Shown one piece after another: positions 30,251-51,287 of a stretch of DNA of 64,000 nucleotides. Every line of letters begins with the position of its first letter. The first letter of the stretch is position 1. The stretch lies in NCBI GenBank assembly GCA_052147455.1, contig JBKQKO010000128.1, positions 7,548-71,547 of the forward strand, read 5' to 3'. The stretch comes from Desulfobaccales bacterium. Lineage in GTDB: Bacteria; Desulfobacterota; Desulfobaccia; Desulfobaccales; 0-14-0-80-60-11. The notes below the pieces were generated by a model that had not been told where the DNA came from, made no database searches, and saw only the letters and a list, made by a program, of their open reading frames with translations. The translations under genes were made by a program, and so were the position numbers.

Positions 30251-30327
30251 GGTGGGCGTAGCTCAGACGGCAGAGCTCCGGGTTGTGGCCCCGGTGGTCG
30301 CGGGTTCAAGTCCCGTCGCTCACCCCA
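30251..30327 (+). tRNA. tRNA-His (anticodon GTG) with encoded G-1 and CCA
   Basis: Folded by hand. G-1; acceptor GTGGGCG/CGCTCAC; D stem GCTC/GAGC; anticodon stem CCGGG/CCCGG with loop TTGTGGC; T arm GCGGG-TTCAAGT-CCCGT; discriminator C; CCA. Confidence 0.95.
30306..30327 (+). repeat. attL core: 22-bp direct repeat (tRNA-His 3' end)
   Basis: TCAAGTCCCGTCGCTCACCCCA is repeated exactly at 51221-51242. Confidence 0.9.
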
Positions 30328-30346
30328 GTAATTTTCAAGTAATTTC

Positions 30347-30378
30347 GGGCTATTGGATGTTTCCAATAGCCCATTTTA
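30347..30378 (+). terminator. hairpin terminator immediately inside the island left end
   Basis: GGGCTATTGG-atgttt-CCAATAGCCC followed by ATTTTAT. Confidence 0.55.
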
Positions 30379-30380
30379 TG

Positions 30381-30400
30381 TGTCCGTAAACTGTCCGTAA
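30381..30400 (+). repeat. arm-type direct repeats TGTCCGTAA ACTGTCCGTAA (left arm)
   Basis: The same CTGTCCGTA motif is duplicated at 51139-51158, in the same orientation. Confidence 0.75.
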
Positions 30401-30520
30401 GCCCATGGGGATGCGATTGGCACCTTACTGTACCAACCCCAAAGGGGCCAAGTCCTACCACCTGACCCCTGGACATTGCTGATACTGAATTGATTTAAGC
30501 CGAAAACCTGGAAAAAATAA

Positions 30521-30904
30521 TTACATACGCAAATCATTCCGGTGGTAGGCCGTATTGCTGGCCAGGTCCATATTGTCCACCTTGTGGCGGTGGTGGACAC
30601 CAACCTGGTAAGCAAGTACAACCTCTTCATTCTGCAAGCTATCAAGGTCTGGACTGATCCTGAGCGCCAAGGTCGCCGGATGATCCATGCCAATGGGGAT
30701 GGCACCTTCGTGGTCGATGGCAGGACCATCAATCTGAAAAAAAAGATGGTGAAGTGGCAAGCCTTCGTGTGATCCTTTATAGATAATCATCACAAAGAGT
30801 ATTCCCAATAGGCAATCACTTTTCGGCCCAACACGTTTAATTTTGGCAAGTGAGCCGATATTTATCCTTAAAATTGCTAAGGTCTTGATTCCACCCTTAT
30901 ACAC
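30521..30904 (-). CDS. hypothetical ORF (possibly a gene remnant)
   Basis: 127-aa ORF downstream of the enolase-superfamily gene. No motif recognised, and competing ORFs exist on both strands. Confidence 0.25.
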   Translation of the reverse strand: MYKGGIKTLAILRINIGSLAKIKRVGPKSDCLLGILFVMIIYKGSHEGLPLHHLFFQIDGPAIDHEGAIPIGMDHPATLALRISPDLDSLQNEEVVLAYQVGVHHRHKVDNMDLASNTAYHRNDLRM

Positions 30905-30924
30905 ATATCGAGTGGAATTTCGGT

Positions 30925-32040
30925 TTAGTCGATTCGGTACCTCTTAACAGTCTCCAAATCGACTTCAACCCCCAGGCCCGGTCCATTAGGGATGGGGACG
31001 ACCCCATTTTTGATTACGCTTGGGTCACATAGGAGTTCACTACGGAGAGGGTTTGGTGTAGCATCGAGTTCAACAATAATTCCACCTGGTAAGGCCGCGA
31101 AAAGATGCAAAGTTGCTGCGAGACCAATGGCATTGCCAAAGAAATGTGGAGCCCACGGTAGCCCCCAAGCTTCTGCCATGTCACAAATGATTTTCATCTC
31201 AGAAATTCCGCCGGTTTTAGTAACGTCGGGCTGAGCAATGCGGAACAGTTTACCGGAAAATGCCTTCCGGAACCCATCCCGGCAGTAGACATTTTCTCCT
31301 CCAGAAACTGGGATCGGACTGTTGGCAGTGACATAAGCCAGGTGATCGGGTTCCTCACAGGAGCAGGGTTCTTCAAGCCATTCGATGCGGTATTTTGCTA
31401 GGATATCCGCCATTCTCAGCGCCTCTTCTGGCTTCCACCCCATATTGGCATCGATCATCAACTTGCCTTGAGGTCCGATTACCTTCCTGGTTTCACGAAT
31501 ATTCCGCACGTCTGTCTTCTCGCCAAATCCGACTTTGACTTTCACGGACCTGATGCCGAGTTCTATGCTTGCCTCAGCCCGAACTTCGGGGTTTTTTGGA
31601 CCAAGGCCGCTGGCATACACCGGTGCTTCGGATATAAATTTTCCGCCGAGAAGTTCGTAGATCGGCATATTTTTATATTTGCCTAATATGTCCCACAAAG
31701 CTATGTCTGCGCCGCTGATTGCCTGTATTAACTGCCCGCGACAACCTGCCTGAATGCCAATAGTATTTAATTGCCCGTACATTTTGTGCCAAAGGCGGCC
31801 GACATCAAGAGGATTTTCTCCTATTAAGAGGGGTTCGATGGCTTTGGCTATTGTTTTTTTCCGCTCCTCAAGAGCCCAGTATGGATGGTTTACAAAACTT
31901 TCCCCCCATCCTTCGATACCTGCGTCCGTCGTGATGTGAACCAGGCAGCTTTTCCTGTGCGTCATCAGGCCGAATGAGAAACTGAGAGGTTCTTGCAACG
32001 GAACTGCGAGGCTGATGGTCTCAACCTTGATTATTTTCAT
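30925..32040 (-). CDS. mandelate racemase / muconate lactonizing enzyme family (enolase superfamily) protein
   Basis: 371 aa with GIEGWGE, KVKVG, IDANMGW and WLEEP metal-ligand and barrel motifs. Confidence 0.85.
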   Translation of the reverse strand: MKIIKVETISLAVPLQEPLSFSFGLMTHRKSCLVHITTDAGIEGWGESFVNHPYWALEERKKTIAKAIEPLLIGENPLDVGRLWHKMYGQLNTIGIQAGCRGQLIQAISGADIALWDILGKYKNMPIYELLGGKFISEAPVYASGLGPKNPEVRAEASIELGIRSVKVKVGFGEKTDVRNIRETRKVIGPQGKLMIDANMGWKPEEALRMADILAKYRIEWLEEPCSCEEPDHLAYVTANSPIPVSGGENVYCRDGFRKAFSGKLFRIAQPDVTKTGGISEMKIICDMAEAWGLPWAPHFFGNAIGLAATLHLFAALPGGIIVELDATPNPLRSELLCDPSVIKNGVVPIPNGPGLGVEVDLETVKRYRID

Positions 32041-32057
32041 TTCATTTTACCCCTTCC

Positions 32058-32771
32058 TTAATGCTTCTCCGCTTCCGTCCAGATTGGCCTTAAGGGCCCG
32101 GTAACAAAAGTGAAAGAAGCCGCACCCAGAAGTGCGACTATACACATCATTAGAAAGGCCATCTCAAATGACCCGGTGCGCGTCACAATGATGCCGGTAA
32201 GGATGGGGGCGAGAACTCCGCCCCCAAACATTCCTGCGGTATTCATGATCCCGCCGATCGAACCCACATAGTCCGTTGCCGGTGCAATATCGGTAGGCGT
32301 CGCCCAAATACATCCATAAGCCATCCTCATGATAAATGCCGTAAGACAGAGAAGGGCAACGGCCATAAAGGGAGTATGCGCTCGTCCGACTGCAAATATA
32401 GAGATGGCGCCACCGATCATGCCGACACAGATAGGAATTTTTCTGGCAACCGCCAGACTCATCTTCCGGCGTACCATGGCATCAGACCAGGACCCGCCGA
32501 TCAAGCCGCCGATCAGACCTGCGATACCCGGCAACATTCCATAAATTCCCATTTTTATAATTGAAAAGTGCTGTGCTCTAACCAGGTAGGTGGGAAGCCA
32601 GGTATAGAAGAAGGCATACACAAATGGATAACAGAAATATCCGAGGGTAATTCCCCAGACTTGACGGTGCTTAAATAAAGAAAACCAGGATACATTCATT
32701 GAAGATGGCGTCGATAGTTTAGAGGCATCGGGGTGAATTGCAATTTCATCAACCTGTTCAATATAATCTAA
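32058..32771 (-). pseudogene. MFS transporter (ACS/hexuronate-galactonate type), C-terminal half, split by IS insertion
   Basis: Six-TM half starting ...DYIEQVDEIAIHPDASKLSTPSSMNVSWFSLFKHRQVWG. It joins in frame to 35680-36320 once the insertion is removed. Confidence 0.85.
32764..32771. repeat. 8-bp target site duplication TAATCTAA (left copy)
   Basis: Identical octamer at 35680-35687, directly abutting both terminal inverted repeats. Confidence 0.85.
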
Positions 32772-32794
32772 GGCGATTATCAGCTTGACACAGT
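32772..32794 (+). repeat. terminal inverted repeat (left) GGCGATTATCAGCTTGACACAGT
   Basis: The reverse complement of 35657-35679 is GGCGATTATCCGCTTGACAAAGT. Confidence 0.9.
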
Positions 32795-32963
32795 AAACCT
32801 AAAAAGTTTGCACGCAAATTGGAGGTTTTGCGTGAAGGTCGGAGCGAAGGAAAGTTTACCACGCCAAGGTGAACTTGACAAAAACTTTCCTTCATGGGAA
32901 GGTAATTTAAAATCAGGCGCATTGATTGAGTCTCTTTCTGGTAGCGGCAAAAGGTATATAACC

Positions 32964-33659
32964 GTGCTTGAAGCCTATTTGGATGAAAGTGGGACTCATG
33001 TTGGAGCAAATTTGCTTTGTGTCGCTGCATATGTAGGAAACCGCAAAGAATGGCTTGCCTTTGAGGAAAAATGGCAAAAGGAAATTGATAGAGCTAAATT
33101 ATCTTGTTTCCATGCCAAAGAACCGAAAAGTAGGCTTTTAAAACTACCCCTAATAGAAGCGATTGAAAATCGTAATTTTACTGGTTTCATTTGCTCTGTC
33201 CGACCAGAAGTTTTTAACCTTCATGCAGGGCCACAATATAGAAGTAGCTTAGGTAATGCGTATTCAGCTTGTACTCTTACTGTTGCAAAAGGTGTATTTG
33301 ACTTAACAAAGGATAAGAAATTAGGACCAATATTGTTTTACATAGAAGATGGTCAACCCAATGCTAGATTTGTTGAGCGAACCTTAAGATTATTGTTAAA
33401 TAATCGCCAATTTCCTGTGGCCGGTGTATTTCTTGGAAGAAAAGATGAATTTTTACCCCTTCAAACAGCAGATTTTTTAGCACATTCATATGCCATTAAG
33501 GATCAACCTTGGCTTGATTTATTGCTTCGGCGGCGAAAAGTCCACGGCGGGGAAATGACAGCGGAACACTTAATCAATGCATCAAGGGAAATTAAAAAGC
33601 TAATAAGTCGGCAGCGGAACATAAGGCGTAAAGCAAATAGAGGAAGGATTGAAATCTAA
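32964..33659 (+). CDS. DUF3800-like protein (passenger gene A)
   Basis: The N-terminal YLDESG and C-terminal LPLQTADFLAH motifs match my recollection of DUF3800 (DESG ... QxAD). I propose the GTG at 32964. The ORF is open from 32808, so the start is uncertain. Confidence 0.65.
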   Translation: MLEAYLDESGTHVGANLLCVAAYVGNRKEWLAFEEKWQKEIDRAKLSCFHAKEPKSRLLKLPLIEAIENRNFTGFICSVRPEVFNLHAGPQYRSSLGNAYSACTLTVAKGVFDLTKDKKLGPILFYIEDGQPNARFVERTLRLLLNNRQFPVAGVFLGRKDEFLPLQTADFLAHSYAIKDQPWLDLLLRRRKVHGGEMTAEHLINASREIKKLISRQRNIRRKANRGRIEI

Positions 33660-33692
33660 AGTTTATTTTGACTATAATTTTGGAGCTTACTT

Positions 33693-34193
33693 ATGTTCGA
33701 AAGGATTAAGACGTTTTATAAGGGTGTCAAAGGTGATCTAGCAATCAATAAAATTAATAGGCAATCTAATTTAGTTATGACCGGAGTGGGTATTATATTA
33801 CTTTGTGAATTCATAGAGGAAATGGGATTTGATAAAGCGCAAGTATTGGCCGCCCAAGTCGTAAACTACCTTCAAGGCTATGATATAGATAGAATGATTC
33901 TTGAATCAGAAGAGCCATTAAAATCACGGATTATTGCTGTAAAAGATATCGTGAAGGACCGGGCAATCAAGGTTATGGATAATAAAGGTGAAATAAAAGA
34001 AATGGTTGTCCATGAACTAAGGGTCCACAAAACACTAAGGTATTTGGGTATTGAAAATCCCATTCCTTCAGAAATAGAGCAGGTTGATTTTCTGCTTAAT
34101 AAATATGAAACAGATATTGATTATGATACATATAATTTCGTGGCTAGTATTTTTTGGGGGCGTGTTAAAAAAGCAGGGGGAAAGACAAAATGA
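33693..34193 (+). CDS. hypothetical 166-aa protein (passenger gene B), one hydrophobic segment
   Basis: TGGAG SD 7 nt upstream of the ATG. Hydrophobic stretch LVMTGVGIILLCEFI. No family recognised. Confidence 0.6.
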   Translation: MFERIKTFYKGVKGDLAINKINRQSNLVMTGVGIILLCEFIEEMGFDKAQVLAAQVVNYLQGYDIDRMILESEEPLKSRIIAVKDIVKDRAIKVMDNKGEIKEMVVHELRVHKTLRYLGIENPIPSEIEQVDFLLNKYETDIDYDTYNFVASIFWGRVKKAGGKTK

Positions 34194-34366
34194 GCACTCA
34201 ATTGCAAAGCAAAAAGGAAATTCTCAAAGACAGGGTGGTTACTTTGGTCAAGGAGTTTGTACAAGCCGAGGGCGGCATAACACTCGTGGATATTGAAGCC
34301 CTTTTTGGGCATAATCCCCACTACGAGGTTATTGCTGCTCTCTACCAAACACTTAGGCTTACTTAA
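34190..34366 (+). CDS. hypothetical 58-aa protein (passenger gene C)
   Basis: ATGA overlap with the stop of gene B. Sequence MSTQLQSKKEILKDRVVTLVKEFVQAEGGITLVDIEALFGHNPHYEVIAALYQTLRLT. Below the ORF-track cutoff. Possibly winged-helix-like. Confidence 0.5.
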   Translation: MSTQLQSKKEILKDRVVTLVKEFVQAEGGITLVDIEALFGHNPHYEVIAALYQTLRLT

Positions 34367-34372
34367 CTTAGG

Positions 34373-34573
34373 TCATTGTTGCGGGTACATTTTTTCGTAA
34401 AACCGCAACATAAGGTCTTTAATTTCATTGAGCCTGCGACCAGAAATAGTGAAAGCGCAATCTCCGCGAGCTTGTTTTGCGCCACCCATATATAGGGCGC
34501 AATTGGGGTCACATTTATCCTTAAAGGGACATGATCTATCTTCAAAGGTACACAAATCGTCATTGACAGCCAT
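34373..34573 (-). CDS. Cys-rich 66-aa protein (passenger gene D)
   Basis: AAGGAGA SD 10 nt upstream. Cysteine spacing CTFEDRSCPFKDKCDPNCALY...GDCAF (C-x7-C-x5-C-x3-C-x13-C). Lies downstream of the transposase on the same strand. Confidence 0.5.
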   Translation of the reverse strand: MAVNDDLCTFEDRSCPFKDKCDPNCALYMGGAKQARGDCAFTISGRRLNEIKDLMLRFYEKMYPQQ

Positions 34574-34672
34574 GGCTTCTCGTCTCCTTAGATATGTGAT
34601 TCGGCAAAATCAGCATACCATAGAGATAGACGGGAAGCCATGGGGTTTTAACGAGGCAATTTCATCTTGCCC

Positions 34673-35554
34673 TTAGAAAGTCGTTTTCAGGACCTCATCC
34701 ATGATATTGAAGTTATCCCGGTTGTTGAACCGGAAAGTGAACTCATTCAGATACAAGGGCAGATACTTAGCGGAAACCTTATGAAAGACGCCGGTAATGC
34801 CACGCTTGAAAAGGGACCAAACATTCTCAATTCCGTTTGTATGAATATTCCCGGCCTTCACATAGGTCATTCTATGGTTTACGGTATTGTGAACAAATTC
34901 AGAGGCGTCAATCCAGCAATAGGATTTAAACTCATCGGTATGAATTTCGGCCCCAGGCGCGGCATAATTGCGGATGAAAGCCGCAAGGGTGCTTTTCTTA
35001 ACGTTACTCACCGCTTTCAAGAGGATTTTACCCGATGTCCGCTCTTTTATTCCAACTACGGGAACTTTATTGGCGGCTCCGCGCCCGGATGGACCTTTTG
35101 CTTTGCCACCTATATAAGTCTCGTCAACTTCGCAAATCCCGGCGAACTTCTGACAAAAATCCTCATCTTCCTGCATAGCCAAGCGGATACGATGAGCCAT
35201 ATACCAAGCGGCCTCATAGCCGGTAGAAAGATGGCGTTGAAGATGCTTGGCAGAAACTCCCTTCTTGGCGGAGCAAATCAGGAAGATCGCCAGGAACCAC
35301 TTGGTAAGTGGCAAGTGGGAATCGTGAAAGACCGTTCCACTAGTGATCGAATATTGATAACGGCAATCCTTGCACTCGTACAGATGGCGCACCTTGCCGG
35401 TCTTGCCCTTGGCGTCAAACTTCATCACCCGAGGGCTACCGCACTTGACACAGACGAGACCTTGCGGCCAGCGAATCCGTTCAAAGTGCGCGATGCACTT
35501 TTCTTCGGTATCGAACCGCTTGACGATCTCGAAAAGGGAAGGTGGTTTGTTCAT
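34673..35554 (-). CDS. IS1595 family (ISXO2-like) transposase
   Basis: N-terminal zinc ribbon CVKCGS...CKDCRYQYS, HLPLTKWF and EVDETYIGGK. AAGGAG SD. Confidence 0.9.
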   Translation of the reverse strand: MNKPPSLFEIVKRFDTEEKCIAHFERIRWPQGLVCVKCGSPRVMKFDAKGKTGKVRHLYECKDCRYQYSITSGTVFHDSHLPLTKWFLAIFLICSAKKGVSAKHLQRHLSTGYEAAWYMAHRIRLAMQEDEDFCQKFAGICEVDETYIGGKAKGPSGRGAANKVPVVGIKERTSGKILLKAVSNVKKSTLAAFIRNYAAPGAEIHTDEFKSYCWIDASEFVHNTVNHRMTYVKAGNIHTNGIENVWSLFKRGITGVFHKVSAKYLPLYLNEFTFRFNNRDNFNIMDEVLKTTF

Positions 35555-35656
35555 GGCTTGCTCCTTATCCTGGTTTCTACCTATATCTATCTCTCTACGC
35601 GGGCGAGGTTTTATAGATATAGATAGCTGATAGTCTATATATAATACAGGAAATTC

Positions 35657-35679
35657 ACTTTGTCAAGCGGATAATCGCC
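35657..35679 (-). repeat. terminal inverted repeat (right)
   Basis: ACTTTGTCAAGCGGATAATCGCC on the plus strand. Confidence 0.9.
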
Positions 35680-35687: not shown

Positions 35688-36320
35688 TTCTTTTTTAGAT
35701 AACCTCTTATGCTTCCGGGGTTCGTCATAGAGCCACCACCAACCGATGGCCCACAACAAACTAATGGCAGCAAAAGCATAAAAAACCTGGCGCCAGCCAA
35801 AGGTAAAGAGTAACCAGGCAGCCAGGGGCATGCCGATAATGATGCCACCGTCATTTCCCAAGGCGTAAAGTGCGCTGGCAGTGGCGCGCTCCTGCTTTGG
35901 GAACCAGGCCCGGACCGTGTGTGCCGCTGCGGGAAAATTAGGAGCCTCGCCAGCTCCCAGCAGAATGCGTGCACCCATTAAACTCTTGAATCCGATGGAT
36001 AAACCGCTCGCCAAGGTGGCTATGGCCCACCAGATGCCTACTAATGTAAAAGTTCTCCGGGGTTTCCACTTGTCCACCAGAATACCGCCGGGGATATTAC
36101 CGGCCACATAGGTCCAGAAGAAGGCGGATATGACGATGCCCATCATTGTGGGGTCCAATCCCAGGTTTTTAGCGATAACAGGCACAGTCACCGCTAAATT
36201 TACGCGGTCCGCTGACTGGATAGTGATACCCAGAAAAAGCATTATTCCGATTGCCCAGCGAAACTTGGGGATCCGTTCTAAATGGTCCTTTACCACGGCC
36301 TCGCTGACTGCGTTGCTCAT
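35680..36320 (-). pseudogene. MFS transporter, N-terminal half, split by IS insertion
   Basis: Six-TM half with GGILVDKWKPRR and the GAGEAPNFPA motif. It ends ...LSKKELD at the IS junction, where a TAG is created across the TIR boundary. Confidence 0.85.
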
Positions 36321-36397: not shown

Positions 36398-36636
36398 CTA
36401 GATCACCTGGCTAATGTGCACCACCTTATAGCGTGCTCCCTCAGCACCTGCTCTAGATAATTGGATCAGGCAGGCAGGACATTCGGTCGCAATGACGTCG
36501 GCCCCGGTTTTGCGAAAGGCGGCATTCTTTTCAGCCAGAATCTTTCTCGACTCTTGGGGAAAATCGAGGTAAAAGGTCCCCGCGCCACCGCAGCACATGT
36601 CCACCTTGGCCGATTCGACGAAATTCCCCGCCTTTC
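36398..36636 (-). pseudogene. C-terminal fragment of a CCG-domain (Fe-S)-binding oxidoreductase (GlcF/LutA-like), truncated by IS3
   Basis: ...FVESAKVDMCCGGAGTFYL...TGADVIATECPACLIQL. The reading frame runs straight into the IS end at 36637, and the 5' part is absent on the far side. Confidence 0.7.
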
Positions 36637-36749
36637 TGACCTGTCCCCAGTAGTTGTACCAAGTTTTAAGTTAGGAGGGGGTTAAGTTGGAGATGCCCCC
36701 AGCTTGGGACCATTTTGAGTGAGAAAATTCAGCTTCTTTTGGGGTTCCT

Positions 36750-37609
36750 TCACCCTGCCAGCCCCCCGGGGGGCTGGCCCGTCTGGAGACCGGTTGCCCT
36801 TCCGTCTTGGATTAGAGCCTGATGCTCCGCGGGAGACTTATATCCCAGGCTGCTGTGGGGCCGTTCTTCATTGTAGTGAAAACGCCAAGCATTGACCTTA
36901 TCTGTAGCATCTTCCAAGCTCAAAAACCAGTGCTCGTTCAAGCACTCCTGGCGAAAACGGCTGTTGAACGCTTCGATGAAGGCATTGTCCGTGGGCTTGC
37001 CAGGCCGGGAAAAATCTAGGACCACCCTATGGGCATAGGCCCATAGGTCTACCTCCTTGGAGATGAACTCCGGGCCATTGTCCACCCGGATACGCTCCGG
37101 CACCCCATATTGGGCCACTGCCAGGTTGAGGGCCGAGACCACATCATAGCCTTTGTAGCGGAATTCCACCCCGATAAAGGGACTAACACGGCTAAAGTTA
37201 TCGACTATCGTTAAGAGCCGCAAGCGTTTGCCGTCGAAGAGCTCATCGGCCATAAAATCCTGGACCAACACTGATTGGGACGAGTAGCATCCGTCCGGTC
37301 TTCCCGCAGTTGGGCGCTGACCCGGCGCCGGGGAGGCTTGTGGCGCATCTGCAAACCCTCCTGGCAATAGAGTCGATAGACCCGCTTATGGTTGACTACC
37401 CAGCCCTCCCGCTGCAGGAGGGTGTGAATCCGCCGGTAGCCATAACGAACCCGGACTGCAGCAATCTCTTTGATCCGTTGTCTCAGGGGTGCCTGCTCAG
37501 ACTTGCGGGACCGGTAGTAGAAGGTGGAGCGGGGACCGGGAAGCGTCTGGGAGGCCCGCCGGATGCTCACCTGGTAGCAGGTTCGCAAGAGCTCCACCAT
37601 GGCCCGCAC
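36750..37609 (-). pseudogene. IS3 transposase orfB (DDE/rve integrase core), carries an internal frameshift near 37350
   Basis: ...RPNQCWS in one frame and DFMADELFDGKRLRLLTIVDNFSR...RVDNGPEF...YNEERPHSSLGY in another. Confidence 0.8.
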
Positions 37610-37626
37610 CTGGGCAGGCTTTAGAG

Positions 37627-37633
37627 CTTTTTT
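37627..37633 (-). promoter_or_regulatory. IS3 programmed -1 frameshift heptamer A AAA AAG
   Basis: Minus strand reads CGAAAAAAGCTCTAA. The -1 frame continues KKALKPAQVRAMVELL. Confidence 0.7.
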
Positions 37634-37657
37634 CGGATCACCTCCTGGAGCATTTCC

Positions 37658-42696: not shown

Positions 42697-42807
42697 CTCA
42701 AGATGAGGGTTTGGGCCTACAACTTCCTGCATATGATCGGACAGTTCTATATCTGGGGGGAAGGAGTGCGTCGGTCAATGGATTGGCTGATCAAGCGTAT
42801 GATTAAG
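42697..42807 (+). pseudogene. IS1380-family transposase C-terminal fragment
   Basis: LKMRVWAYNFLHMIGQFYIWGEGVRRSMDWLIKRMIK aligns with the 44096-44400 fragment (LQMGILAYNFLHLIRQFYVWGAGVRRSIDWLIKRMIK). Confidence 0.6.
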
Positions 42808-43808: not shown

Positions 43809-43885
43809 ACATTTTTCCTCGGGTGATCAAGGTCTGCCAGAATAGCTTAACCGGCAGTAGATAAGGAATTTTTTGATATATATTG

Positions 43886-43949
43886 ACCGAGATTAGGCGC
43901 CAGGCTTGCCCACCGCAGTCAAAAAAAGGTTTTTGGGACCTCTTGCCTG
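43886..43949 (-). repeat. promoter-like module of about 64 bp, copy 2 (upstream of the TPR gene)
   Basis: ACCGAGATTAGGCGCCAGGCTTGCCCACCGCAGTCAAAAAAAGGTTTTTGGGACCTCTTGCCTG. The minus strand has TTGACT-N17-CGCCTAAT. Confidence 0.7.
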
Positions 43950-44095
43950 GAAAAAATCCCCCCAAGTTTCTGTTCTTGAAGCCGAATCCTCTCGTCGACC
44001 ACATGGTAGCACAAGTTTCCTTGAAAAAATACTTTTTTCCTGAATTTTGGGCATATCTAATCCTCAGAACCCCAGACACTCTACTGCTGTGGAGG

Positions 44096-44400
44096 TTAAG
44101 GACCCCAGGCCGGCACCGCCCGGTAGTGGTGGGATAGAGGGAAAGCCGAGGCAACATGGACATACCACCTCCGGGCAGGATAAGAGACTCTGGCTCCCAC
44201 TTTAATCATACGCTTGATCAGCCAATCTATTGACCGACGCACTCCTGCACCCCAGACGTAGAACTGCCGGATCAGGTGCAGGAAGTTGTAGGCCAGAATC
44301 CCCATCTGTAGCCTGGCCTGGTTGGCCTCGAACCTTTGGCAACTGGTTTTGTCCCACCGAAGAGTGTGCTTCCCTTCCTTCTCGGGGATCTGGTGATTAC
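44096..44400 (-). pseudogene. IS1380-family transposase C-terminal fragment
   Basis: ...WDKTSCQRFEANQARLQMGILAYNFLHLIR...RRWYVHVASAFPLSHHYRAV. The N-terminal three quarters are missing. Abuts and overlaps the 3' end of livH. Confidence 0.65.
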
Positions 44401-44495
44401 CGGTCCCACCCGGACCGACGTCATGGATATTCGTTTGATGATGATTGGGTAAGACTTGACCGGCAAAATGGTGGGCGAGCCGATGAGCTTTTGGG

Positions 44496-45329
44496 TTACG
44501 CCTCAATCGGTTTGATGATCAATACCAGGCCCATCACTACGAATACCATCGTGTCGGCGGCGGGACCCCAGAACCTGCCGGTGACGGACATCACCATCCC
44601 CAGAGCAAAAGCAGCAACAAAAGTCCCTCTGATGCTTCCCAACCCTCCCACCACCACCACCGCGAAGCAGATCAAAAGAACCTGGAATCCCATGTAGGGA
44701 TTTACCGCAGTGATGGGCGCGTACAGGACGCCTCCGAGTGCCGCCAGGCAGCTTCCTAAAGTGAAGGCCACGGCAAAATATTTATCCACGTTGATTCCCA
44801 GGCTGGCAACCGCCTCCTTGTCCTCCAGGCCGGCGACGATGATTTTCCCCACCACTGTGCGGCTAAAGAAGAGTTCCAATCCGACAAAGATCAGCAGCGA
44901 AATCAGAATGATGATGAGACGGTAGACCGGAAGCTCCACGCCCAACAGGGAAAAGTAGGTGCCGACGGGATCGGATAAGGGAATGGGGCTGGCCCCCCAG
45001 ATCCATTTGATGGCATCAACCCCGATGAGGAGGACAGCATAGGTGGCAATGATGGCATAATCAACGGCTTGTCCATAGAGTCTGCGAATGACGTAGCGCT
45101 CGATCAGGTATGATATAGGGATGACGGCTATTACTGCGATAACGGCTGCTAGGAAAAATCCCAAGCCTAACTTTTGAAGGGTGGTGACCAGGATATAGGC
45201 GCCCAGCGTATATACCAGGGCATGAGCGAAGTTGACGATCCGCATGGTCCCGAACGTCAGGGACAGTCCGATGGAAATAATGTAGAGGATTCCCCCTACG
45301 GTTAATCCATAGGCAAGCGTGCTGATCAT
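44496..45329 (-). CDS. livH: branched-chain amino acid-type ABC transporter permease (LivH family)
   Basis: 277-aa polytopic permease, fourth gene after the binding protein. The last few codons may be altered by the adjacent IS remnant. Confidence 0.8.
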   Translation of the reverse strand: MISTLAYGLTVGGILYIISIGLSLTFGTMRIVNFAHALVYTLGAYILVTTLQKLGLGFFLAAVIAVIAVIPISYLIERYVIRRLYGQAVDYAIIATYAVLLIGVDAIKWIWGASPIPLSDPVGTYFSLLGVELPVYRLIIILISLLIFVGLELFFSRTVVGKIIVAGLEDKEAVASLGINVDKYFAVAFTLGSCLAALGGVLYAPITAVNPYMGFQVLLICFAVVVVGGLGSIRGTFVAAFALGMVMSVTGRFWGPAADTMVFVVMGLVLIIKPIEA

Positions 45330-46339
45330 CGTCTGATCTCCGACTGAGGCGTTGACTCCACGTTAGCCGGCTTTTCAAAACGGTTGAGCAATGCCACGAC
45401 ATATCCCCAAACCCCGGTTCTGAACTTGAACACCAGCAGAAGAAGGACAACCCCCAAAAACATCTCCCAGCGCTGAATGTAGTTGGGCAGGTAATTGCTT
45501 ATCAACTTATAGCTTACGCCTCCGATCAGCGCTCCATACACACTTCCCGCCCCGCCGATGAGGCTTGCAAAGATGACTTCTACACTCCTGAGGGGGTCGA
45601 TGAAGCTGGTGGTAACATAGCTGTAGTTGAGAATAAACAGTGCCCCGGCAAAACTGGACAGGCTGGTCGAGACGATAAAGGCCACCATTTTGACGGCAAA
45701 AGTATTATAGCCCAGGAACTGCACCCGGGTTTCATTTTCCTTGATACCGCGCAGGAGAAGGCCAAAGAGGGAGTTCGTGAGCCTCCGCACTAAAAATATG
45801 ACCAGGAGTAGACACACGAGGGTGAAGTAGAAAACTATCATGCGGTTGGCAAAGTTGAATATCCACACCTTCTGGAAAGAGGCGGACATGCCGTCTTCGC
45901 CCCCGGTCCAGCGCGAGAACGCCACCAGGGCCAGGAAAAATCCGAGCTGATTGAAGGCCAGATTAATGAGCGCAAAACAGGCGCCGGTGGTGCGCACAAT
46001 GATGGGCCCTAAGATAAGCCCCACGGCCGCACCCGATCCCACGGCAATAAGAAGGGCCAAAAAGGGATTTCCCGATAGGTGCTCCCCTGACAAGGCAAAG
46101 GCGTACGCCCCCACTCCCAGATAAAGCATATGGCCGAACGAAAGCCTTCCCATGTGGCCGTATAACAGATCGTAGGCCAGCACGAAGATACAGAAGATCA
46201 TAAAATCAATGGTTCGGTCCGCGGAGAGAAGCGGCATCAGCAGCAAAAAGAGGGCTGCGATGACGAGCAAATCAAATTTTCTGAGAAATTCGAGGGTGGA
46301 ACTGATCAGGGATTTGCCGCCGGTCCTGGGTAAGCTCAT
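45326..46339 (-). CDS. livM: branched-chain amino acid-type ABC transporter permease (LivM family)
   Basis: 337-aa permease. Its stop overlaps the livH start. Confidence 0.8.
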   Translation of the reverse strand: MSLPRTGGKSLISSTLEFLRKFDLLVIAALFLLLMPLLSADRTIDFMIFCIFVLAYDLLYGHMGRLSFGHMLYLGVGAYAFALSGEHLSGNPFLALLIAVGSGAAVGLILGPIIVRTTGACFALINLAFNQLGFFLALVAFSRWTGGEDGMSASFQKVWIFNFANRMIVFYFTLVCLLLVIFLVRRLTNSLFGLLLRGIKENETRVQFLGYNTFAVKMVAFIVSTSLSSFAGALFILNYSYVTTSFIDPLRSVEVIFASLIGGAGSVYGALIGGVSYKLISNYLPNYIQRWEMFLGVVLLLLVFKFRTGVWGYVVALLNRFEKPANVESTPQSEIRR

Positions 46340-46351
46340 GGTCGTGATCCG

Positions 46352-47044
46352 CTATAAATAAGTCTCCAGATAAGATTGATTCTGAATGGCGGCCGGCTCG
46401 GAAAGTTCCGCGGGTATGCGTCCTTCCTGCATGCAATAGATGCGGTCAGCCAATCGGGATACCACGGGAAGATTCTGTTCAACGATGACCATAGTCACTT
46501 CGCCTTTCATAAGTTCAAGGGCTTTCAAGACCTCTTCGATGGTACCCGCGGCCAGACCTTCGGTAGGCTCGTCGATGAGGAGCAGGCGAGGGGAGCCCAC
46601 CATCGCCCGGCCGATGAGGAGCAGTTGCCGTTGACCTCCTGAAAGCCCTCCTGCCTTGTTTTCCAGGAACCTGGAGATCTGCGGGTAGATTTGCACCACC
46701 CGATCCAGGGCATCTCTGAGCTTGACGTTGGCGGCGTAAGCGGCCAGCTCGATGTTCTCCCTGACTGTGAGTTTGGTGAACACCCGTTTATCCTGGAACA
46801 CGTACCTGATCCCCAGGCGAGCCACCTTATCAGGAGGCCTTCCGGATATTTCCTCCCCAGCAAATTTAATCGTGCCGCGTAAAGGGGGCAGAAAACCGGC
46901 AATGGTCTTCAACAGGGTGGTCTTGCCGGCCCCGTTGCGGCCCACGATAAATACGACTTCACCCAGCCTGGCGTGTAAGGAGACCTCTGAGAGAACCCGG
47001 GCATTCCCGTAAAACACATCGATCCGGTCTACCGACAACAGCAT
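46352..47044 (-). CDS. livF: ABC transporter ATP-binding protein (LivF family)
   Basis: Walker A GRNGAGKTT, signature LSGGQRQ, Walker B LLLIDEP. Confidence 0.85.
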   Translation of the reverse strand: MLLSVDRIDVFYGNARVLSEVSLHARLGEVVFIVGRNGAGKTTLLKTIAGFLPPLRGTIKFAGEEISGRPPDKVARLGIRYVFQDKRVFTKLTVRENIELAAYAANVKLRDALDRVVQIYPQISRFLENKAGGLSGGQRQLLLIGRAMVGSPRLLLIDEPTEGLAAGTIEEVLKALELMKGEVTMVIVEQNLPVVSRLADRIYCMQEGRIPAELSEPAAIQNQSYLETYL

Positions 47045-47045
47045 G

Positions 47046-47837
47046 CTAGGCTCCCTGAGGCTTGTCCGGGGGGCGGCAAGTCACGTCGCCCCAATAAACT
47101 CGCCGTACCGTCTCGTCGGCCAAAACAGCTTCGGGCAGGCCATCTGCAATCAACCTGCCCTCGTGCATGACACTGAGGCGCGTAACCAGGCCCAGGATGC
47201 GGGTAATCTTGTGCTCAATGATCACGAGCGTAAACTCATCCTTTAACTTATGGATCAGATCGAGGACATCGGTAATCTCCCCCTCACTCAGGCCGGCAAA
47301 GGGTTCATCCAGCAGAAGCACCTGAGGTCTGAGGGCCAGGGCCATGGCGATTTCGAGTTTACGTTTATCCCCATAAGAAAGTTCGGAGGTGGGTAGACTC
47401 ATCTTCTTGGCGAGGCCCGCTCTCTCCAGGGCAGATCTGCAGTTATCCACCACCTGGGGAGAATGCGGATTACCCAGGAGGCGCCATAGCAGTCCTTTGG
47501 ATTCGGGCTGGGAGTGAACGACCGCGAGGACGAGATTGTCAAGGACCGCCAAGGAGTCAAAGACGGAGACCAATTGAAAGGTCCGGATCAATCCGAGGGC
47601 TACCCGCTTATGGGCCCCCTGGTTGGTGATATCGGCGCCGAGGTAGGTAATGGTTCCTTCAGAAGGCGGGAAAAGGCCGGTAAGGAGATTGAAAAAAGTT
47701 GACTTGCCGGCGCCGTTGGGCCCAATAATGCCCGTAACTTCTCCTTTTCGGAGTCCGTAGTCCACGCCGTCAACCGCGGTGAAGTCGCCGAAACGCTTAC
47801 TAAGGCCATGGCTTTGGAGAATGACCTCTTCTGACAT
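47046..47837 (-). CDS. livG: ABC transporter ATP-binding protein (LivG family)
   Basis: Walker A GPNGAGKST, signature LSYGDKRKLE, Walker B LLLLDEP. Confidence 0.85.
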   Translation of the reverse strand: MSEEVILQSHGLSKRFGDFTAVDGVDYGLRKGEVTGIIGPNGAGKSTFFNLLTGLFPPSEGTITYLGADITNQGAHKRVALGLIRTFQLVSVFDSLAVLDNLVLAVVHSQPESKGLLWRLLGNPHSPQVVDNCRSALERAGLAKKMSLPTSELSYGDKRKLEIAMALALRPQVLLLDEPFAGLSEGEITDVLDLIHKLKDEFTLVIIEHKITRILGLVTRLSVMHEGRLIADGLPEAVLADETVRRVYWGDVTCRPPDKPQGA

Positions 47838-47972
47838 GCGGGGGGTCCTTGCCAGTGCGCCAACGACGGCGCGTCATTCTGAGAGGTGGTCTGTATAGGG
47901 CGGGAGGGCCATATCCTGACCTCGGGAGAGAGTAAATATCAACGGTCCGGGAGGCTGGTGGCCGGGGAGGCC

Positions 47973-49238
47973 TTAGTATCCCAGCGACTTTAAAGACGGC
48001 AGGTAATCTTCACCGGTATAGGCGCCGATAACCTTCACCAGGTCCCACTTAGGATCTTTCCGTTCCGCCGCTCCTTTGCCCACCACTACAAAGGCATTGT
48101 ATTTGAAGATTGGTTGGTGGTCGATGCGCCAGGTCCCTTGGCCCTTCATCGATTCGAAGGTGGGATTTGCCATAATGGCATTGGCGACGGCCATGCCTTC
48201 ACTACTCTTGGCGATAGAGATGCCGCGCAGGGCCTCCTTGGTGCCGATGTAGGCCATAGCCGAATAGGGATCAGGAGGATATCCATACGCCTTGGTAAAC
48301 TTATCGGAAAAGGCCTTGGCCTGCTTAACGATGGCTTCGTCCGGGAAGCCGCTCAAGTCATAATACCAAGCCATTAGGGAATAGACGCCTTCCAGGGCCT
48401 CGGGGGGCACACCACTGCCAAAGGCATCCGTCATCCAATCGAACCAGATCTTGGACTTCCTCTTCAAGCCGGTTTCGTGAGCTTGCTTGAGCACGTTGAT
48501 GGCATCAGTCCCCCAGTGGGCCAGCATGACGATCTGAGGATTCATCTCCATTATTTTCGTCATATACGGCGTGAAATCGCTCGTCCCCACCGGTGACTCC
48601 AGATACTCGACTTTGATACCCAGTTTGTCGAAGGCATCCTTGGCGCCACGCCATTGGTCCTGGCCAAAGGCATACGCCGGGCCGAAGAAGACGATTTTGT
48701 TCAACCCCAATTTGTTCACGATATAAGAAGCCCCGGCGTAACCGATGGAGTAGGCGCAGCCATTCACGGCAAAGGTAGTGGGAGCCATCTCCCCTTTCTC
48801 AAACATCTTCAAGGCCACTACATTGACGGGGAAATAACCGATGGGATGCTGTTTTACTTCCTTATTGAGCGCGGCACTGATGGGAGCAAAGGTCTGCCCG
48901 ACGACAACATCGACCTTGTCTTCATCGACCAACTCGCGGAAACGGCGAATGCCCACGTCCGATTTGGACTCATCGTCTTTAATGACATACTTAACGGGGA
49001 CCTTCTTGCCGCCCCAATCGAGACCGCCGGCCGCATTAATCTCATCGATGGCCAATTTGGAGCCATCCAACTGCACCGGGCCCACCGGGGAGGCGGCTCC
49101 GGTCAGACCATAGAGCAACCCCACCTTGACTTCCTTGGGCGGCTCCGTGGCCAGGGCCGTAACCCCAAGGGTAAATACCAGGCAGCTTACCGCAGCCGCA
49201 ACTATCAAAGCCGTCTTGCCAGATGTGCGCACCTGCAT
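47973..49238 (-). CDS. ABC transporter substrate-binding protein (type 1 periplasmic binding fold, LivK/amide-binding family)
   Basis: 421 aa with a signal peptide and VKVGLLYGLTGAAS near the N-terminus. Confidence 0.8.
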   Translation of the reverse strand: MQVRTSGKTALIVAAAVSCLVFTLGVTALATEPPKEVKVGLLYGLTGAASPVGPVQLDGSKLAIDEINAAGGLDWGGKKVPVKYVIKDDESKSDVGIRRFRELVDEDKVDVVVGQTFAPISAALNKEVKQHPIGYFPVNVVALKMFEKGEMAPTTFAVNGCAYSIGYAGASYIVNKLGLNKIVFFGPAYAFGQDQWRGAKDAFDKLGIKVEYLESPVGTSDFTPYMTKIMEMNPQIVMLAHWGTDAINVLKQAHETGLKRKSKIWFDWMTDAFGSGVPPEALEGVYSLMAWYYDLSGFPDEAIVKQAKAFSDKFTKAYGYPPDPYSAMAYIGTKEALRGISIAKSSEGMAVANAIMANPTFESMKGQGTWRIDHQPIFKYNAFVVVGKGAAERKDPKWDLVKVIGAYTGEDYLPSLKSLGY

Positions 49239-49293
49239 GAATGGAGCCCTCCTTATTTTTGCTGACTGAACTTAACTGGTGATTAGGAGTTGC

Positions 49294-49944
49294 CTAAGAG
49301 ATGGCCGTGAGAAACTCCTTACTCGTCATTACTTGACCGATGCGGGGAAAGATCACCTCTTCAGCATAGAGTTGCTCACGGTCGGTATCCGTCGCGGTGC
49401 AATCTTTAATCAGGATCACCCGATAGCCCAGGTCGTAAGCGGAACGGGCCGAAGATTCCACGCACCAGTTGGTATGGAATCCGGTGAACGCCACATACTC
49501 GATCTCATTGGCGCGCAGGAGGTAGTTAAGGGCGGTGGAGTGAAAGGCATCCAGGGTCAGCTTGCCGCGCACCAGGATGTCTCCTGCTTTCGGCTTCAGG
49601 GGCTCGATGATCTCCGGGCCTGGGGTCCCTTCCAACCAGGCCCCGGTACCCCAGTCAGCTTTCATCTCCATTTCTATGCCGCGCAGGCCCGCGGTTCCAG
49701 GTCCTCCCGGCTTCAATTCCGGAAAACCGGGCTTAAAAGCCTGAAAGGGGACATAGAAGATCTTTACCTTGCCCCGGGCGCCATCCAAAAGGGACTTCAA
49801 GTTATTGATAACGCCCCTTTTGGCTAGCTGGTCGGCAATGAACTGATACATCGTGCCCCCAGGGCTGAGAAAGTCGTTTTGGGCCTCAATGAGAACAATG
49901 GCTGTTCTGTCAGCCGGTAACTTCATAGCTGTCTCCTTCTGCAC
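49294..49944 (-). CDS. cysteine hydrolase (isochorismatase family)
   Basis: TAIVLIEAQNDF and catalytic Cys context FTGFHTNWCVESSARSA. Confidence 0.8.
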   Translation of the reverse strand: MQKETAMKLPADRTAIVLIEAQNDFLSPGGTMYQFIADQLAKRGVINNLKSLLDGARGKVKIFYVPFQAFKPGFPELKPGGPGTAGLRGIEMEMKADWGTGAWLEGTPGPEIIEPLKPKAGDILVRGKLTLDAFHSTALNYLLRANEIEYVAFTGFHTNWCVESSARSAYDLGYRVILIKDCTATDTDREQLYAEEVIFPRIGQVMTSKEFLTAIS

Positions 49945-49989
49945 AGGTTAAGGTGTATGGGTAGTCGAGTAGTTGGACGGGACCCTAGG

Positions 49990-50658
49990 TTACCGCCCCC
50001 CGAGCTGCTTCCAGCGGCCCGCGTCCAGATCTTCCCGAATTTGGGCCATCATATATCGGTTATGCCTGCGGAAGGCCTCCTCGGCCTTTTCCGGGTCGCG
50101 CCCTCGCAGGGCCCAGACAAGTTCAGCATGTTGGTCAATGAGCTTCGAGAAATCGGGCTGCATATGCAGGGTCAAGGGGCGCATCTTATTTTTGATGGTT
50201 TCGAGGAGTTCCTTGAGCCACTCGTTGCCACAGGCATCATATACGGTGGCATGGAATTCAAAGTCCAGCTTGGAGTAACCCAGGATATCGTGCTTCTCGA
50301 TCACCTCCCTCTGCCTCAGGATAAATTTGGCCATTTTTCCGAGGGAGCTTTCATCAATGCGGGTAGCCGCCAGTCGGGCGGCCATGCCCTCCAGTACCTC
50401 CCTTACCGCATACAGGTCCAGGGCATTCTCCGCGGTGAGCGATGACATGAAAACGCCTCGGTTGGGAATATTCTCCACGAGGCCTTCCTGCTCTAAACGC
50501 CTCACGGCTTCCCAGACAGGGGTGCGACTCACCTCGAGTTCCCTGGCGATGCTTTCGATGTTAAGGCGGGCTCCCGGCTGGAAGCGGTAATTAGCTATCA
50601 TCTTCTTCAAAACGGTGTAAATCTGATCGCCGAGCTTTTCCCGCTGTAGTTTTGCCAC
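49990..50658 (-). CDS. GntR family transcriptional regulator (FadR/FCD type)
   Basis: N-terminal wHTH (LNIESIARELEVSRTPVWEAVRRLEQEGLV) and a helical FCD-like C-terminal domain. Confidence 0.85.
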   Translation of the reverse strand: MAKLQREKLGDQIYTVLKKMIANYRFQPGARLNIESIARELEVSRTPVWEAVRRLEQEGLVENIPNRGVFMSSLTAENALDLYAVREVLEGMAARLAATRIDESSLGKMAKFILRQREVIEKHDILGYSKLDFEFHATVYDACGNEWLKELLETIKNKMRPLTLHMQPDFSKLIDQHAELVWALRGRDPEKAEEAFRRHNRYMMAQIREDLDAGRWKQLGGR

Positions 50659-50832
50659 TAATGCCTCCCGTGTCCCTGACCATAGAAACCAGCCGGTGAA
50701 TTGTCAAGCACATTTTTCATATTTCATTAAAAATAAATTATGAAGGAGCCCATCCGCTGAGATAGGCATCTGGAATCTATAAGAATTCACAGCATCAAAC
50801 TTGATAACGATTCATGAACTCCAGGCCCATAT

Positions 50833-50870
50833 TGACCTGCCCCCAGTAGTTGTACTAAGTTTTAAGTTAG
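50833..50870 (+). repeat. solo copy of the IS3/IS407-like terminal repeat
   Basis: TGACCTGCCCCCAGTAGTTGTACTAAGTTTTAAGTTAG here versus TGACCTGTCCCCAGTAGTTGTACCAAGTTTTAAGTTAG at 36637. Confidence 0.8.
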
Positions 50871-50939
50871 TCTGGGGGGCAAGTCAAGCCAGAGATCCCG
50901 GCGGAGCTGTGCTGCGCCAGGATCTCTGGGCATCACCTG

Positions 50940-51182
50940 GATGGCCTCGGGTGCGGGTGGCCGATAACCCAATGCACTGTGAGGCCTTACCGTATTGCCA
51001 CGCAAAAAGTTATCGCCGGGTATTCAGAGCGCAAGGTTGGGGCTGCCATGGGTCATAAAGACCCTTACTCCACCAGGCGCTATGCGAAAATGGCAACTGA
51101 AGCTCTGCGAGGGATGATCGAGGAGTGTCCGCCTGACACTGTCCGTACACTGTCCGTAGAAGTAGATAGACAGATTAATTGA
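50940..51182 (+). pseudogene. tyrosine recombinase (integrase) C-terminal remnant
   Basis: ...VRPYRIATQKVIAGYSERKVGAAMGHKDPYSTRRYAKM resembles box II (R...LGH....T..Y). The upstream three quarters of the gene are missing next to the solo IS end. Confidence 0.65.
51139..51158 (+). repeat. arm-type direct repeats CTGTCCGTAC ACTGTCCGTA (right arm); a third partial copy GTGTCCG lies at 51125
   Basis: Same motif and orientation as 30381-30400. Confidence 0.75.
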
Positions 51183-51220
51183 TTAATAATTTCAATATAT
51201 TTACGCAAATCGCGACGGGG

Positions 51221-51242
51221 TCAAGTCCCGTCGCTCACCCCA
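51221..51242 (+). repeat. attR core: 22-bp direct repeat of the tRNA-His 3' end
   Basis: TCAAGTCCCGTCGCTCACCCCA. Imperfect similarity extends about 11 nt further 5'. Confidence 0.9.
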
Positions 51243-51252
51243 AAGACTTTAG

Positions 51253-51287
51253 AGGGTTAGCTTTAATCGGCTAACCCTTCTATTTTT
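51253..51287 (+). terminator. probable original tRNA-His terminator, displaced by the island
   Basis: AGGGTTAGC-tttaatcg-GCTAACCCT then TCTATTTTTA, starting 11 nt after attR. Confidence 0.6.

Follow-up and report, generated by a model that had tools for sequence, protein, structure and literature searches.

A 20.9-kb island in the 3' end of a tRNA-His gene of a Desulfobaccales bacterium: a probable decayed integrative element

The stretch of DNA analysed here, referred to as the window, is 64 kb long and comes from a metagenome-assembled genome of an uncultured member of the Desulfobaccales (Desulfobaccales bacterium). ARAGORN called a single tRNA gene in it, tRNA-His(GTG), at 30252-30327 on the plus strand, beside a radical-SAM gene in an adjacency that is conserved in relatives. 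Between this tRNA gene and a second copy of its 3' end lies a block of 20.9 kb (30328-51242), which holds metabolic genes, insertion sequence (IS) elements and the last codons of a tyrosine-integrase gene. We consider it highly probable that the block is a decayed integrative element that was inserted into the 3' end of tRNA-His by a tyrosine integrase. Related loci and contigs compared with the window carry L-numbers (L009, L100 and so on) as labels; protein families were assigned with Pfam and NCBIfam.

Borders, composition and the empty site

The last 22 nt of tRNA-His (TCAAGTCCCGTCGCTCACCCCA), of which the first copy starts at 30306, recur exactly at 51221-51242, both copies being on the plus strand. 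The repeat finder extends this core to 27 nt with one mismatch (26/27), 30301-30327 versus 51216-51242. We refer to the former as the core of the left attachment site (attL), a 27-nt identity block that begins in the T-stem of the tRNA and ends with its CCA, and to the latter as the attR core, a displaced 3' fragment of tRNA-His (26/27 nt, 22 of them exact). All 27 nt of the core are present in the intact relative L100. A 22-mer search of the window with up to 3 mismatches returned only these two matches and no third core copy inside the block; 100 shuffles returned none, with zero expected by chance. The duplicated tRNA end, which a first-pass annotation of the sequence had read as a pair of att repeats, is thus present in exactly two copies in the window. 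The block is bounded on the left (30327/30328) by a complete tRNA gene, the regenerated target, and on the right by the 3' fragment in the same orientation. Both junctions recur at 100% identity in several independent assemblies and runs, and the right junction was also found at 93% identity in an unrelated sample. As a separate observation, short-read contigs of different runs stop exactly at 30700 (L006, L007) and at 50933 (L148, L149). The latter position lies within an IS3 repeat. For the former the window contains no repeat, and strains may vary at this point of the island's left end.

Composition was followed as guanine-cytosine (GC) content, GC at third codon positions (GC3) and tetranucleotide profiles. 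GC of the island is 0.502 as compared to 0.623 in the left and 0.625 in the right flank, and it is patchy, ranging from 0.37 to 0.58. GC3 is 0.29-0.73 inside the island and 0.70-0.85 outside, and the tetranucleotide profile of the island deviates sharply from that of the first 30 kb of the window. The low and patchy GC that had been suspected at first reading is therefore borne out at about 50% against 62% on both flanks, and GC3 likewise supports a foreign block.

For comparison of the site itself, 80 related loci were retrieved via the radical-SAM gene adjoining tRNA-His. In the closest relatives, 8 kb to the left of the tRNA is syntenic and about 90% identical, and in all of them the similarity to the left part of the window ends at the tRNA. 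In L011, whose left flank is 89-93% identical to window 22.3-30.3 kb, tRNA-His is directly joined to the homologue of window 51243-51344, and this same flank directly follows tRNA-His in the island-free L034. Aligned with the predicted empty site (30101-30327 joined to 51243-51420), L011 is unbroken at 30327|51243, with 85.8% identity over 332 aligned columns, and the alignment reaches 102 nt beyond the junction. L034, L032 and L049 likewise align across the predicted junction. The first-pass annotation had proposed that an island-free relative would join 30327 to 51243, and this is what L011 has. None of the island genes was found within 10 kb of tRNA-His in 40 relatives scored for them, which carry other content at the same point.

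Integrase stump, arm-type repeats and the tRNA-His hotspot

At the right end of the block, directly inside the attR core, is a stump of a tyrosine-integrase gene (50995-51182, plus strand). It consists of the last 62 codons, with the box II His and the catalytic Tyr in GHKDPYSTRRYAKM and a tail; the frame ends at 51182 with ATQKVIAGYSERKVGAAMGHKDPYSTRRYAKMATEALRGMIEECPPDTVRTLSVEVDRQIN followed by a stop codon. Identification of this stump comes from an orthologue on L100, where positions 2454-2768 are 93.3% identical over 315 nt to window 50995-51309. The L100 reading frame is open for 341 codons (at least 341 aa) and matches PF00589 with E = 3.6e-24. The stump corresponds to its residues 280-341 with 92% identity, and nothing else of an intact integrase is left: its first position, 50995, directly follows the RHSF of the HxxR box, so that the PF00589 catalytic set (R, K, HxxR, H/W, Y) is incomplete and only the last His and the Tyr are kept. 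The first-pass annotation had recognised a box-II-like remnant here but gave it about 80 codons from 50940. The remnant is real, its size is about 62 codons, and 50940-50994 instead encodes, on the minus strand, the C-terminal end of an IS3 orfB (with NTVRPHSALGYRPPAPEA and a stop further on).

This orfB tail belongs to a remnant of a second IS3 copy (50833-50994, minus strand; rve_3 E = 4e-4), which abuts the stump and comprises a terminal inverted repeat and the last ~45 codons of orfB. Over 45 nt, its end at 50833 and that of the IS3 copy at 36637 (36637-36681) share 89% identity, which bears out the solo IS3-type end noted earlier at this position. L034 has a homologue of 50833-50994 at 83%. 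Since the junction joins the interior of the IS to the interior of the integrase gene, the deletion must have come after the IS insertion. The pair TGACCTGCCCCCAG and CTGGGGGGCAAGTCA at 50833-50890 was also considered as a miniature IS and rejected, its second arm being stop-proximal orfB coding sequence. There is no other integrase in the 64-kb window and no excisionase-like gene was found in it; no excision, replication or transfer gene is left in the island.

The integrase family was reached stepwise. The stump (64 aa) as a query found a single relative, a match of 50 aa on contig L096, which carries a frameshifted full-length integrase, and from L096 the rest of the family was found. A second protein search with the catalytic part of the L096 integrase gene returned 15 integrases, of which the closest is P0002 on L100. 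L100 and L138 share with the window the integrase 3' end, the repeats in its tail, the 27-nt core and the downstream flank, and are intact homologs with the same repeats, as the first-pass annotation had called for. The orthologues have about 40 residues N-terminal to the SAM-like domain, where no Pfam arm-binding family matched, and the family is 24-27% identical to phage integrases (phiJB, phiCTX).

Both ends of the island carry short tandem repeats. The octamer TGTCCGTA occurs four times in 64 kb, always on the plus strand (30381, 30392, 51140 and 51151), and these copies form two tandem pairs just inside the island ends and nowhere else in the window. By motif search the left (P') arm comprises GTGTCCGTA and CTGTCCGTA, 11 bp apart, at 30380-30399 (plus strand), and the right (P) arm comprises a partial copy GTGTCCGCC at 51125 and two copies of CTGTCCGTA, altogether 51125-51158 (plus strand), which lie in the tail codons of the integrase. 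The left repeats start 53 nt past the left core, the right repeats end 57 nt before the right core, all four full repeats are perfect, and the partial copy is present in the orthologue L100 as well. All of the repeats described at first reading, the partial third copy included, could be located. Joining the two ends into a reconstructed attP places repeats distinct from the core on both sides of it.

The same right-arm layout is seen in L100/L138, with ACTGTCCGTATACTGTCCGTA at the same tail position and a partial third copy, and in L096, with three ACTGTCC(A/G)T repeats in the integrase tail and the tRNA-His core 24 nt past the stop codon. It is also seen with other motifs in more distant family members, namely CGTCCGTAT in L097, GTGTCCC in L098 and CGTCACC in L099. 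In L096, L097, L098 and L099 (49-62% identity) the tandem tail repeats are followed at once by a tRNA 3' fragment. The left arm has its counterpart in L118, from the same metagenome as L138, where tRNA-His is followed by a hairpin and then by TGTCCGTAGACTGTCCGTA. Homology of L118 covers window 30012-30399 and divergence begins exactly past the repeats; likewise, homology of L010 and L012 to the window ends at the left arm repeats.

A scan of metagenome contigs for the arm motif TGTCCGTANACTGTCCGTA gave 43 loci. The tandem motif lies about 75 nt past tRNA-Met in L106, L107 and L126, which come from unrelated metagenomes, about 45 nt past tRNA-SeC in L137 and also past tRNA-His in L134, an overall range of 45-75 nt downstream of these three tRNAs in unrelated metagenomes. 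L116 has the motif within the tail of an integrase, closely followed by a tRNA-type 3' fragment. The occurrence of the motif in L100/L138, L118, L096 and L116 as well as past tRNA-Met and tRNA-SeC indicates that it is the integrase lineage, not the host site, that the repeats accompany. About one third of the 43 loci are iteron-like CCGTAAA-type arrays unrelated to tRNAs and were not used as evidence; among these, L102, L104, L108, L110, L140, L142 and L143 have long arrays, including TGTCCGTAAACTGTCCGTA, that are not beside tRNAs. In viral contigs the motif gave two unrelated matches, with neither an integrase nor a tRNA. We infer that the repeats are candidate arm-type sites of the integrase, as was suggested at first reading; the intact orthologue has the same repeats at the same place, and other lineages at tRNA-His with their own repeats on both arms support this assignment.

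Each junction is accompanied by a hairpin. On the left, a hairpin with a T-run at 30347-30382 (plus strand; terminator scan and fold; -21 kcal/mol, z = -5.6 for 30347-30372) is borne by the island and now follows the tRNA as its predicted replacement terminator; it is conserved in L010, L012 and L118. On the right, a hairpin with a T-run at 51252-51289 (plus strand; terminator scan and fold; -17.7 kcal/mol, z = -3.4 for 51252-51279) lies outside the island, 10 nt past attR, and is followed by a tandem of ATTTCCAACCC and ATTTGCAACCC at 51288-51310 on the plus strand. The L035 and L022 islands show this same succession of hairpin, T-run and two 11-bp repeats in their tRNA-proximal arm. Across relatives the sequence of the repeats after the tRNA hairpin varies while the layout stays constant. 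For the tandem ATTTCCAACCC / ATTTGCAACCC there is no partner repeat, third core or integrase in the window. The flank past attR is probably the orphan arm of an older element. The view of the right hairpin as the displaced original terminator of the tRNA holds in so far as this hairpin and T-run do follow tRNA-His in island-free relatives; it is weakened by the resemblance of the flank to the arm of such an older element.

tRNA-His beside the radical-SAM gene is a hotspot for multiple elements, with at least three repeat classes as judged from sequence. Intact islands of 8.8 kb in L035 (cores at 9757 and 931) and of 9.6 kb in L022 (cores at 9796 and 159) occupy the same tRNA-His. Their integrase is of a different lineage, about 25% identical to that of the window; the gene start is turned towards attR, the tRNA is duplicated over 51 nt, and these islands have repeats of their own (TTACCCGCA, TTCCCAGCA) after attL and beside the integrase start at attR. 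Tandem arrays at tRNA-His were seen in L009, L022, L035 and L099. In L009 two tRNA-His cores enclose an integrase-less unit of 1.6 kb whose ends have matching repeats. The unit is at about 11300-12920 of the reverse complement (cores at original 9737 and 8116) and has GGTTGCGNATAGGTTGCA-type repeats and two small open reading frames (ORFs); its left flank recurs past the tRNA of L008 and L086 and past attR of L096. The unit resembles a non-autonomous miniature element belonging to a third repeat class. An integrase directly beside the tRNA was also considered, and none of the ORFs starting at most 260 nt past each tRNA or core copy in relatives is an integrase; the integrases at this hotspot sit at the attR end.

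Interior of the island and other atypical segments

The interior contains genes of predicted metabolic function interspersed with IS elements, at least four of the latter being present as elements or fragments. At the left end is an enolase-superfamily (MR_MLE) enzyme (30925-32040, minus strand; Pfam E = 3.7e-61), which resembles acid-sugar dehydratases and stays below every curated cutoff. It is followed by an MFS transporter gene (minus strand; Pfam) in two parts, the C-terminal half at 32058-32771 and the N-terminal half at 35688-36320. The gene is split by an IS1595-family unit of 2908 bp (32772-35679), which was defined by its repeats, Pfam and NCBIfam; its inverted repeats are 27 nt long, and the target duplication, TAATCTAA, is of 8 bp. 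The unit encodes a DUF3800-like ORF (32808-33659), a 166-aa ORF (33693-34193) and, on the minus strand, the transposase (34673-35554; NF033547, 211 bits against a cutoff of 75). DDE_Tnp_IS1595 with an N-terminal zinc ribbon, the inverted repeats and the 8-bp duplication are as in the IS1595 family, and removal of the unit with one copy of the duplication restores an MFS ORF of 448 aa. The perfect 8-bp target duplications make the insertion look recent. The passenger ORFs of this unit, the DUF3800-like one of 283 aa and the 166-aa one without a family, are unusual and have 35-40% GC.

Next to the transporter is the C-terminal fragment of a gene for a CCG-domain Fe-S protein (36409-36636, minus strand; PF02754 E = 1.4e-11), cut by an IS3-family copy (36637-37969, minus strand) with orfA (HTH_Tnp_1) and a frameshifted orfB, in which HTH_21 and rve lie in different frames. 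This copy has all the characters of the IS3 family (orfA, orfB and terminal repeats starting with TG), while 50833-50994 is an end fragment only. Then follow, on the minus strand, genes for a bestrophin-like protein (38294-39037), a BamE-like lipoprotein (39267-39623) and a PCC/DUF296 protein (40036-40467), all assigned with Pfam, a DJ-1/PfpI protein (40642-41148; TIGR01382 PfpI, 188 bits against a cutoff of 139) and an aldo-keto reductase (41197-42201; Pfam), in whose translation a twin-arginine leader, RREFIK, can be read. In a region of IS debris (42695-44506), the two arms of a 112-nt inverted repeat (42695-42806 and 44202-44313) enclose a TPR gene (43125-43808, minus strand; Pfam); the C-terminal fragment of a DDE_Tnp_1_4 transposase (44096-44506, minus strand; Pfam) belongs to the same region.

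The right part of the interior, again on the minus strand, is taken up by a Liv/Urt-type ATP-binding cassette (ABC) importer with two permeases, two ATPases and a Peripla_BP_6 binding protein (44496-49238), which the urea and branched-chain amino-acid models match weakly and below their cutoffs. An isochorismatase-family hydrolase (49294-49944; biuret amidohydrolase and RutB models match below cutoffs) and a GntR/FCD regulator (49990-50658; Pfam) complete the block. As PfpI and the IS1595 transposase alone among the cargo pass NCBIfam cutoffs, substrate names are not justified. The gene content and IS elements of the first-pass annotation were thus recovered with Pfam and NCBIfam. A contig of another run, L095, is 98.7% identical in nucleotide sequence to window 47914-49407 and encodes an identical binding protein, suggesting that another strain, slightly diverged, has the binding-protein module too. 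When the complete island was compared with the PLSDB plasmids by megablast, a 125-nt IS-like match was all that came up.

Two other segments of the window are atypical. At 57000-64000 the GC goes down to 0.52 and the tetranucleotide correlation is 0.62; the genes here include a histidine kinase (58614-60632, minus strand) and a 968-aa CheB/CheR-PAS protein (60639-63545, minus strand). The segment may be further acquired DNA that runs past the window end. At 13000-13700 a patch of 0.45 GC in a region of 0.65 GC contains a 141-aa ORF (13118-13543, minus strand) with a GIY-YIG-like motif (YYIGRSKNLRQRLYNNH).

Origin of the island and its meaning

We propose that a lambda-like tyrosine integrase would have recombined within the 27-nt block from the T-stem to the CCA end of tRNA-His. 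The element would thereby supply a new tRNA 3' end and its own hairpin terminator at attL, and the old 3' end with its flank would be displaced by 20.9 kb to attR. In the circular form the predicted attP would read integrase tail with two to three TGTCCGTA-type repeats, 57 nt, core, 53 nt and two repeats, which is the layout expected for the arm-type sites of a heterobivalent, lambda-like integrase encoded in the direction of attP. The sequence itself shows the decay: all but the last 62 integrase codons were removed by an IS3 copy and a deletion, the IS1595 unit has since split the MFS gene, and the further IS3 copy and the IS debris lie inside. What is left is a fixed, non-autonomous metabolic island, whose genes also include those for a Tat-exported aldo-keto reductase and for small envelope proteins. 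The first-pass annotation likewise envisaged an immobilised metabolic island that took up further insertions, with which the integrase stump, the lack of another integrase in the window and the several IS lesions agree.

Phage lambda is the nearest well-known model of such an attP: its int is transcribed towards attP, arm-type sites flank the core on both sides, and those of the P' arm lie beside the int stop codon. As in lambda, the integrase gene of the island points at the core, short direct repeats stand about 55 nt on either side of it, and the intact orthologues have an N-terminal region before the SAM-like and catalytic domains. Unlike in lambda, the repeats of the window lie inside the last integrase codons and integration is into the 3' end of a tRNA; the family is 24-27% identical to integrases of phages, and no Xis gene, IHF or Fis sites were identified.

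Islands in tRNA genes have been catalogued by the Islander approach, in which a regenerated tDNA and a displaced fragment mark the island ends (Hudson, Lau and Williams 2015, PMC4383910). The window agrees with those islands in the intact tRNA with a direct 3' fragment, the identity block from the T-stem region, the tyrosine-integrase gene at one end, the foreign composition and the tandem arrays in relatives. It differs in that the integrase is a 62-codon stump, for which the Islander filter for an intact integrase gene would reject the island, and in having an interior made up of IS elements and metabolic genes, from which phage and conjugation genes are absent. The island therefore fits the standard tDNA-island signature (PMC4383910) except for the missing integrase.

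The closest known elements, L100/L138 and L118 (metagenome Ga0187884, run SRR12951267) and L096, have the same integrase lineage, TGTCCGTA repeats on both arms, the 27-nt tRNA-His core, the attL hairpin and the attR flank. Their cargo is different. L138 carries a prim-pol with an NrS-1-like HBD domain and an AAA_25 protein, and L096 a TraI_2 relaxase with HTH_17, SNase, PLD and Phd/ParE; among more distant members, L097 carries a methyltransferase and a helicase, and L099 a UvrD helicase and PemK.

The borders and the foreign composition are shown directly, as are the relative with an empty site, the IS lesions and what the stump is. We infer further that the present interior was delivered by the element itself and did not accrete later. 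Several points weigh against this account. The stump alone matches PF00589 at E = 0.059 (positions 137-170 of 172), below the Pfam threshold, so its identity rests on the orthologue. The evidence for the empty site lies in a short flank, as the similarity of relatives to the right flank stops about 102 nt past the junction; the HycI and NiFe hydrogenase genes of the right flank are not within 10 kb of tRNA-His in any relative, and the downstream genes of L011 are not in the window. Because the right-flank genes differ in relatives, synteny on this side cannot be used beyond about 102 nt. No island-free conspecific genome was found: among conspecific contigs, which were located by exact-protein look-ups, every one crossing attR has the island at 100% identity, and neither an empty site nor a circular junction was found. 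Finally, the interior of 20.6 kb has no homology to intact family members. Homology to these ends at 30399 and resumes at 50995, so that at its left end some 72 bp and at its right end some 248 bp of the island region are shared with them, and their backbone proteins have left no trace in the window.

This last point raises the question of whether the island is of composite origin, with ends that derive from one integrase family and a 20.6-kb interior that was not cargo of that element. Such an interior could have arrived by IS transposition or rearrangement, by backbone replacement or by collapse of a tandem array with loss of an internal att site. The break in homology and the loss of every backbone gene would be natural under this origin, as would a GC ranging from 0.37 to 0.58, at least four IS elements or fragments, the truncated CCG-domain gene and the 112-nt inverted repeat. 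Tandem arrays do occur at this tRNA (L009, L022, L035, L099), and the cargo of intact relatives consists of replication, transfer or defence genes and never of metabolic ones. However, the block contains no third core and no extra arm repeats, and cargo is wholly different between every pair of family members seen, so that an unshared interior is the norm for the family. We regard a composite origin as a genuine possibility, although the less probable one, and it leaves the nature of the borders unchanged. That the block is instead ancestral, and was lost from the island-free relatives by deletion between the direct repeats, appears very improbable. Presence and absence alone give no direction, all conspecific assemblies have the island and a variant of the binding-protein region (98.7% identity) occurs in another run, but a GC 12 points below both flanks, the deviating GC3 and tetranucleotide profiles, absence from 40 of 40 relatives that hold other content there, and the integrase stump and arm repeats at the ends all speak for acquisition. 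As for a chance repeat or an assembly chimera, a metagenome-assembled genome with short-read contigs that break at 50933 and 30700 might invite the suspicion. With zero chance matches expected, both junctions at 100% in independent assemblies and runs, and the right junction at 93% in an unrelated sample, it can practically be dismissed.

A different matter is whether the island is dead. In streptococci, families of integrative and conjugative elements (ICEs) come with cis-mobilisable elements (CIMEs), which have att sites, lack recombination and transfer genes and are mobilised by a related element. By analogy, the integrase of a related element acting in trans could excise or co-transfer the island. 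Like the streptococcal CIMEs, the island has functional-looking att flanks, no recombination or transfer genes and a site shared with related autonomous elements; the phylum and the integrase family are different, and mobilisation in trans is hypothetical for the island. The core (26/27 nt) and four perfect full arm repeats have survived heavy internal decay, related populations harbour an intact orthologue of the integrase whose arm motifs are identical, and the 1.6-kb integrase-less unit in L009 indicates that non-autonomous units exist at the tRNA-His site. These observations are set against a 64-kb window without an integrase of any kind or an excisionase-like gene, and against conspecific contigs with neither a circular junction nor an empty site; conservation of 60 nt of repeats may simply mean a young age. 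Mobilisation of this kind would thus seem unlikely. Somewhat less likely still is its broader form, in which the island would be a cis-mobilisable unit in a hotspot shared by at least three lineages of integrase that differ in their arm-repeat codes (TGTCCGTA, TTCCAACCC-type variants and GGTTGCRNAT). If the island were cis-mobilisable, an incoming L100-type element could excise or carry along the 20.9-kb metabolic block, and the perfect cores and arms beside a wrecked interior would reflect such use.

Taken as a decayed integrative element, the island separates to the base 20.9 kb of acquired DNA from the native chromosome of this bacterium. What was acquired is an amide or amino-acid importer with a hydrolase and a regulator, a sugar-acid-type dehydratase with a broken transporter, and stress or detoxification proteins, on a segment no longer able to move on its own. 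The case leaves the knowledge of how such islands work unchanged. The putative arm-type repeats in the integrase's own last codons and the crowding of several integrase lineages at one tRNA are mildly unusual, as is the possibility that the intact att ends might still permit mobilisation in trans. Within Desulfobaccales, the tRNA-His beside the radical-SAM gene has often served as a landing site, and the island brings to light a tyrosine-integrase lineage, so far uncharacterised, of Desulfobaccales and other uncultured bacteria, which targets tRNA 3' ends and whose presumed arm sites lie within its own coding tail.

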